From: a virus | Taxonomy: Duplodnaviria; Heunggongvirae; Uroviricota; Caudoviricetes | IMG/VR virus record: IMGVR_UViG_3300032093_000003 | Length of the DNA stretch: 64,000 nucleotides | Strand: one strand, 5' to 3' | In this document: positions 26,415-26,674 of the stretch, in pieces | How positions within the stretch are numbered: the first letter of the stretch is position 1 | Layout of the letters: every line of letters begins with the position of its first letter | The notes under the pieces: generated by a model | What the model saw: only the letters and a program-made list of their open reading frames with translations | Databases searched by the model: none | What the model was told of the DNA's origin: nothing | Position numbers and translations under genes: made by a program

Positions 26415-26644
26415 TGTAGATTATTTTGTTTTTTTTATCTTTATTATAAATATGTCGTAAATCAAAAAATATTTTTAGATATTATTGATTTTATCAAATA
26501 TTTTTCGTAGTTTTTTACTACTAGTATATCTGGTCCCAGTATAAATATTACAATAAATAAAATAAGTTTATAAATAATATAAAACTAGAATACTGGATCT
26601 AGTATACTGGGTGAAATATAAAAATATAATCTTTATAAAATAAA

Positions 26645-26660
26645 TGTTTCTCGTGAAACA
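26645..26660. promoter_or_regulatory. parS-like site TGTTTCTCGTGAAACA
   Basis: 15/16 identity to the bacterial parS consensus TGTTTCACGTGAAACA; intergenic; palindrome extended by AAA/TTT flanks. Confidence 0.6.
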
Positions 26661-26674
26661 TTTTTTAGAATAAA

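Follow-up and report, generated by a model that had tools for sequence, protein, structure and literature searches.

The palindrome at positions 26642 to 26663 of the window (the whole stretch of 64,000 nucleotides of phage DNA analysed here) is best explained as a somewhat degraded version of a chromosomal parS site of the host type, which freshwater T4-like jumbo phages would keep as a single, intergenic element beside their tail-tube gene; a probability of roughly 60% was assigned to this reading. The parS-like 16-mer occupies positions 26645 to 26660, reading TGTTTCTCGTGAAACA on the plus strand and TGTTTCACGAGAAACA on the strand of the neighbouring genes, and agrees with TGTTTCACGTGAAACA at 15 of 16 positions; the sole mismatch falls inside the CACGTG core. 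One parS half-site is intact (GTTTCAC, 26653–26659, minus strand), and the other, GTTTCTC (26646–26652, plus strand), has adenine 6 replaced by T. The pairing extends outwards to arms of 9 nt, AAATGTTTC-TCGT-GAAACATTT or, in gene sense, AAATGTTTC-ACGA-GAAACATTT. A wider chromosomal parS consensus, TGTTNCACGTGNAACA, was reportedly given by Livny et al. in 2007; this 16-bp palindrome is matched at 15 of 16 positions in the window and at all 16 in many of the related phages.

No other site within the 64-kb window comes within one mismatch of parS, and such matches were found in none of 100 dinucleotide-preserving shuffles of its sequence. Hand arithmetic places the chance rate at about 1.1e-3 per 64 kb at 30% G+C, in agreement with the value of about 1e-3 given by the first-pass annotation, whose 15/16 match at 26645–26660 and extension of the palindrome to 26642–26663 were also confirmed by the sequence. 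Since a few hundred chance matches are expected over the approximately 250,000 windows that were scanned, the single-window statistic is not decisive, and it is the comparison with relatives that decides.

The palindrome lies in a spacer of 304 nt separating two minus-strand genes. Its upstream neighbour in gene sense is the tail sheath gene (26719–29550, 943 aa), whose product matches the Pfam family Phage_sheath_1C above the cut-off and Phage_sheath_1 just below it, and its downstream neighbour is a gp19-type tail tube gene (25926–26414, 162 aa), matching Phage_T4_gp19 below the cut-off; the proposed intergenic position between sheath and tube is confirmed. In gene sense, the sheath stop codon is followed by a terminator with its T run, the palindrome, a TATAAA box, a framed A+T-rich stretch, and the tube start. 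The intrinsic terminator of the sheath gene (26675–26699, minus strand), a 10-bp G+C-rich stem and then the T run, lies 14 nt upstream of the palindrome, and the same order of terminator and palindrome recurs in relatives. The TATAAA box (26632–26637, minus strand), a candidate −10 element, lies 7 nt downstream of the 16-mer, and a TATAA(T/A/C) box is found 6–7 nt past the palindrome in most relatives, although its promoter activity is putative.

The framed stretch (26535–26611) consists of an inverted pair of CCCAGTAT, with arms at 26535–26542 (plus strand) and 26604–26611 (minus strand), and CTAG-rich units around an A+T-rich core, including tandem 14-nt CTAG-rich units at 26585–26612. This CCCAGTAT element is unique in the 64-kb window and is the other conserved feature of the spacer, found in almost all relatives whether or not they have the palindrome; it could be a promoter or leader element of the tube gene. 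A T4-type late-promoter box, TATAAATA, was observed at 29587–29594 (minus strand), approximately 35 nt ahead of the start codon of the sheath gene. Neither TATAAATA, which is not enriched, nor the half-site GTTYCAC, which is mildly enriched (23 copies, 15 expected) with most copies inside listed ORFs, was retained as a general promoter motif. Metatranscriptome contigs from one study span the tube and sheath genes and stop at 26414 and at about 26690–26716, short of the spacer; these ends were not accepted as transcript ends, as one contig continues into variant sequence, which indicates assembly breaks at strain variants.

The phage belongs to a family of uncultured, widespread freshwater T4-like jumbo phages. 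The best cultured match of the sheath protein was found in Microcystis phage Mel-JY01 (32% identity), followed by T4-like cyanophages and Flavobacterium phages, and no close relative was found among the cultured phages of INPHARED. In IMG/VR, at least 593 contigs encode a related tube protein, the best 80 of which are 85–90% identical to that of the window, and the DNA was found in lake and freshwater metagenomes from many studies. Several of the related contigs measure 233–297 kb, and near-complete relatives span 233–288 kb, a size that fits the earlier label of jumbo phage. The phage looks virulent.

The end of the sheath gene and the start of the tube gene were located in 77 related loci, drawn from the best 80 of the at least 593 contigs, and 74 of these could be scored. 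The first-pass annotation had named a lack of conservation in syntenic sheath–tube spacers as a refutation; the site passed this test, the palindrome being found beside the tube gene in 52 of the 74 related loci. In 38 loci it directly follows the sheath terminator, and in the other 14, which form one clade, it follows the tube terminator, ahead of a baseplate gene, so that adjacency to the tube gene holds in every relative possessing the element. The CACGTG core is intact in both half-sites in 32 loci, mostly as (T)GTTCCACGTGGAAC(A) or TGTTCCACGTGGAACA; altered cores were found in 20 of the 52 palindrome-bearing relatives, reading CACATG or CATGTG in 11, CACGCG in five, and CACAAG in four, and the element is absent from 22 loci. 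Alignment of the flanks fails between clades, and the 14-mer forms an isolated block of identical sequence there. The palindrome is evidently a conserved element, not a chance match.

The proposed scan of related genomes revealed a fixed place beside the tube gene and one intergenic site per genome. Two relatives, G001 (288 kb, 92% complete) and G003, contain exactly one perfect site each, in the sheath–tube spacer, and a third, G002, contains one after the tube gene together with one further match at 41403, which lies inside a gene and was treated as chance rather than as a second site. Multiple sites distributed over the genome, as in phage phi29, were not found in these phages, the near-complete relatives having one perfect site each. 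Genes of 507–517 aa (DUF7487, REase_MTES_1575-like) were observed between sheath and tube in several relatives, inserted in either orientation (L001:903-2432, L002:1054-2577, L074:1398-2951, and also in L013 and L028). These insertions of about 1.9 kb were considered as the source of a protein binding the site and rejected, given that they resemble mobile genes of the homing-endonuclease type (DUF7487/MTES_1575, endonuclease-like) and not regulators.

In a tree built from the DNA of the sheath end and the tube gene, sites with a perfect core were scattered over several separate clades, and the tree calls for no fewer than six presence/absence changes and 14 state changes in all. The site is dispensable, since 20 of the 52 copies have an altered core, 22 of the 74 loci lack it, and its state has changed repeatedly on the tree. 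By a rough count of independent events, the per-position rate of change in the phages is about 3–4 times higher in the core than in the arms, with a contribution from recurrent changes at the central CpG. A core that evolves faster than the arms also fits a hairpin loop or an operator of the form GTTCC-N4-GGAAC. Constraint on the phage site is thus weaker than, or different from, that on a chromosomal centromere, the site being often attenuated and sometimes lost.

The consensus of the phage family, TGTTCCACGTGGAACA, is identical at every base to the parS of Flavobacteriaceae chromosomes. One to three exact TGTTYCACGTGRAACA sites, overwhelmingly TGTTCCACGTGGAACA, were present in 88 of 101 sampled Flavobacteriaceae genomes, and the reversed control pattern of TGTTYCACGTGRAACA gave 0 matches in the same 101 genomes. 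A set of 42 chromosomal sites was compiled from 20 fetched Flavobacteriaceae regions and the contig of a binned genome (21 genomes; L212, L214–L233). In the 21 genomes these sites are paired, about 1.9 kb apart; only positions 1, 5, 12, and 16 vary, and the 14-bp core GTTYCACGTGRAAC is invariant in 42 of 42. The pair flanks gidA/mnmG in L212, the one annotated region. Where the core of a phage site is intact, most of the variation falls on positions 1, 5, 12, and 16, those that vary in the chromosomal sites.

A link to these hosts was also sought outside the site. A 248-kb relative (85% tube identity) was binned in a genome labelled Flavobacteriaceae, one chromosomal contig of which encodes PGK, holB, gidA/mnmG, ybeY, and gltX, with two perfect TGTTCCACGTGGAACA sites flanking gidA. 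The binned genome possesses a parA-parB operon, and its ParB comprises ParB_N, HTH_ParB, and ParB_C domains. The binned relative itself is without the palindrome, so that the bin provides a host hint for the phage family and not for the site. The Bacteroidota promoter pattern TTTG-N17-21-TAnnTTTG occurs 52 times in G001 and 13 times for the control, including about 30 stereotyped copies of TTTGG(A/T)ATAT...TTATAT(A/C)TTTG on the minus strand of the early region (C1:213500-246000), three of them identical (216210, 216598, and 217355); the pattern shows no excess in the late-gene window (2 copies, 5.3 expected). The hosts are probably Flavobacteriaceae or other Bacteroidota, an assignment based on the promoter type and the metagenomic bin.

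Sites of this type are not confined to the present family. The perfect sequence TGTTCCACGTGGAACA occurs in at least 120 IMG/VR contigs, and the 80 readable ones (L087–L166) span 23–70% G+C; two of these 80 belong to this phage family. A 22-mer identical to that of the window, AAATGTTTCACGAGAAACATTT, was observed in L081 (1274–1295; record G005, 17.5 kb), approximately 45 nt upstream of a 117-aa gene, where it is the only parS-like site in the record. This contig derives from a phi29-like podovirus, with a type-B DNA polymerase, a Gp16 ATPase, and a phi29-type capsid protein, and is unrelated to the phage of the window. The identity of the 22-mer is suggestive and could be coincidence, given, by rough estimate, the many viral contigs with parS-type sites.

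The copy in the window reads CACGAG at its core. The sister of the window in the tree, L001, has a perfect core (SH-aLRT 95), and perfect cores occur in several clades, which indicates that CACGAG is derived from an ancestral perfect site. The changed position is the same in all 42 Flavobacteriaceae chromosomal sites, and position 6 has been described as a base that determines the specificity of ParB and Noc, guanine 1 and adenine 6 separating parS from the Noc site (PMC7383237). Given the loss of adenine 6, a ParB specificity base at a position invariant in chromosomal sites, the copy in the window is probably a weakened site, either under some remaining constraint or heading towards loss. 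Useful loading of ParB is likely for the perfect copies of the relatives and doubtful for the copy in the window. Restriction avoidance was considered as a cause of the core changes and rejected as too weak (CACGTG, 1 copy with 4.2 expected; ACGT, ratio 0.75). Other short palindromes are avoided across the window (GCGC, 2 copies with 21.7 expected; CGCG, 11 with 27.9; CATG, 83 with 167), which suggests pressure from restriction systems. DNA modification by the phage, if present, could block ParB.

A search for ParB families in four relatives (G001–G004) found no ParB with an HTH_ParB domain or at the level of TIGR00180. The one weak match, in G001 and G003, was an early protein of 251 aa (G001:C1:220903-221655, equivalent to L084:958-1713 on the minus strand), which matches phrog_12305, named “ParB-like partition protein”, and has a ParB_N/GmrSD_N-like domain without HTH_ParB. 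This protein showed no similarity to the DNA-binding domain of the host ParB and was not found in G002, G004, the binned contig, or the window; nothing points to this ParB/Srx-fold protein as the binder of the palindrome.

Borrowing of the host ParB would be the most economical reading, since the family consensus is that of the Flavobacteriaceae parS, each genome has one site, and a canonical ParB was not found in G001–G004. Two proposals of the first-pass annotation can be judged on this basis. The site had been called a parS of the canonical type, which is true of the family consensus and less so of the copy in the window, a derived form that has lost adenine 6. It had also been suggested that the phage hijacks the host ParABS/SMC system, a view that gains from the host-family consensus and from the missing canonical ParB in G001–G004, and is weakened for the window by its core mismatch. 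Under the borrowing reading, a dimer of host ParB would recognise the intact phage parS in the infected cell, close as a CTP-dependent clamp, and spread onto neighbouring phage DNA, after which the phage genome would be treated like the origin region of the host. By analogy with phi29, the likeliest benefit would be retention or positioning of the phage genome in cells that grow slowly or divide, as in a carrier state or pseudolysogeny. A ParB complex located just upstream of the promoter-like TATAA box could also damp the adjacent promoter.

A rather unlikely alternative is that the palindrome is an operator overlapping a promoter, where a dimeric regulator of the phage, or a host protein other than ParB, binds GTTCC-N4-GGAAC and controls a transcript that begins in the spacer and is headed for the tube gene or, in the other clade, for the baseplate gene, the likeness to parS being coincidental or co-opted. 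The TATAA(T/A/C) box found at nearly constant distance in the window and most relatives would fit this arrangement, even though a generic promoter scan did not call the promoter and TATAA is abundant in A+T-rich DNA. The unit CGTTCCACGTGGAACC-TTTT-N-TATAAT was found upstream of the tube gene in L003 and downstream of it in L032 and L041, and about 30 nt are shared between the upstream copy in L003 and the downstream copy in L032; palindrome and TATAAT box thus seem to have moved together, which suggests a promoter-linked role. The better conservation of the arms relative to the 4-nt centre, the extra half-sites GTTCCAC or GTGGAAC near the palindrome in L003, L034, L048, and L051, and the ParB/Srx-fold early protein of G001 and G003 are likewise compatible with an operator, but the search yielded no regulator whose DNA-binding domain would match. 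Against this alternative, the consensus and the Flavobacteriaceae parS agree throughout the 14 core positions and also in the variation they tolerate, which would be very unlikely for an unrelated operator. Moreover, ParB can itself be a repressor binding an operator, so that this alternative partly merges with the reading of the site as a host-type parS.

A combination of both ideas, considered improbable, is that the unit of parS and TATAAT is a promoter gated by the host ParB, with phage replication titrating ParB, releasing tail assembly, and disrupting host segregation. In a non-replicating or dormant infected cell, ParB clamps in excess at the phage parS would shut the spacer promoter, and replication would then multiply the site far beyond the one to three chromosomal copies of the host. 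The recurrent core mutations, including that of the window, might represent lineage-specific tuning of such a switch.

There is also little likelihood that the palindrome acts through its fold and without a sequence-specific protein, either as a second stem-loop behind the sheath terminator (a stop for read-through, a processing signal, or an mRNA stabiliser) or as a DNA cruciform. The element does follow the terminator hairpin and its T run; in the exceptions, L001 and L074, it follows an inserted gene with no preceding terminator, an arrangement that argues against this reading. The predicted fold comprises a 9-bp stem and a 4-nt loop, the spacer as a whole folds well (z = −5.9), and the centre, which would form the loop, varies more than the arms. 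However, the terminator scan did not call the palindrome, and the Rfam search returned sub-threshold noise, with no match near the gathering score of any family. The copy in the window shows a two-sided change at one pair, T-A for C-G, but this is the only one among 31 distinct sequences, and the covariation score was reached by 450 of 500 shuffles. Several variants break pairing in the sense strand (GCTCC...GGAAC, GTTCC...GAAAC). The arms are conserved as sequence, as expected if a protein recognises their bases, and a hairpin leaves the identity to the host parS unexplained. Finally, a functionless chance palindrome in A+T-rich intergenic DNA, for which the hundreds of matches expected over about 250,000 windows at about 1e-3 each and the core mismatch of the window copy could be cited, is highly unlikely and is refuted by conservation, with 52 of 74 relatives having a homologous palindrome in the corresponding position and a family consensus that fits parS better than the window copy does, the opposite of regression to the mean.

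Several known systems resemble the one described here. Phages P1 and N15 have ParA and ParB proteins of their own, with sites that bear no relation to chromosomal parS; these phages share with the present family a centromere-like palindrome on a phage genome, whereas no ParB containing HTH_ParB was found in the relatives analysed here (G001–G004), and the present phage seems to be virulent. In the chromosomes of Flavobacteriaceae, parS has the identical consensus TGTTCCACGTGGAACA, varies at the same four positions, and occurs in similarly low copy number; in contrast, the phage sites are not located near an origin, and the window and 20 related loci alter the CACGTG core.

Regulation by ParB offers a further comparison. 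Comparable promoter repression is exerted by the KorB-OB system of RK2, and ParB of P. aeruginosa binds the half-parS heptamers GTTCCAC/GTTTCAC. The phage site resembles such repressor systems in placing parS a few bases from a promoter-like box, with extra half-sites nearby in some relatives, although the promoter here is putative and deduced from the sequence. ParB bound to parS beside promoters has been described as a repressor at parS3/parS4 of P. aeruginosa (bioRxiv 10.1101/151340), and ParB acting at a promoter has been described in S. pneumoniae (PMC4488948).

The closest precedent is found in the virulent Bacillus phages phi29 and Nf, which carry parS of the host type (Meijer et al. 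2005, as related in PMC2731898); according to the same source, phi29 has five parS sites, and transport of its genome into the prespore is aided by the host protein Spo0J (PMC2731898). In both cases a lytic phage carries the parS of the host chromosome, its own ParB was not found, and a host ParB is the partner, shown for phi29 (Spo0J) and presumed here. The two differ in that phi29 is a 19-kb podovirus with protein-primed replication and five sites, subject to entrapment in the spores of a spore-former, whereas the present, putative case involves one, often degenerate site beside the tail-tube gene of a T4-like myovirus of about 290 kb and concerns a host that is probably a non-sporulating member of the Bacteroidota.

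To our knowledge, phi29-like phages and spore entrapment provide the only documented case of a phage using host ParB. The principle of a host-type parS on a phage is thus already known from phi29; what is new is the probable host phylum, which does not sporulate, the T4-like myovirus of about 290 kb, the single copy with its fixed position next to the tube gene and a promoter-like box, and the naturally occurring range of attenuated and lost alleles. As a by-product, the analysis yields a clean description of the Flavobacteriaceae parS, with its pair around gidA (annotated in L212) and its invariant 14-bp core. If host ParB does load onto these sites, an abundant family of freshwater jumbo phages (>590 related contigs) would plug into the segregation machinery of a non-sporulating host. 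The perfect sites, the four kinds of core variant, and the lost sites on closely related genomes form a ready-made allelic series for the possible effects of ParB loading, relevant to carrier-state inheritance, genome positioning, SMC recruitment, ParB titration, and promoter control.
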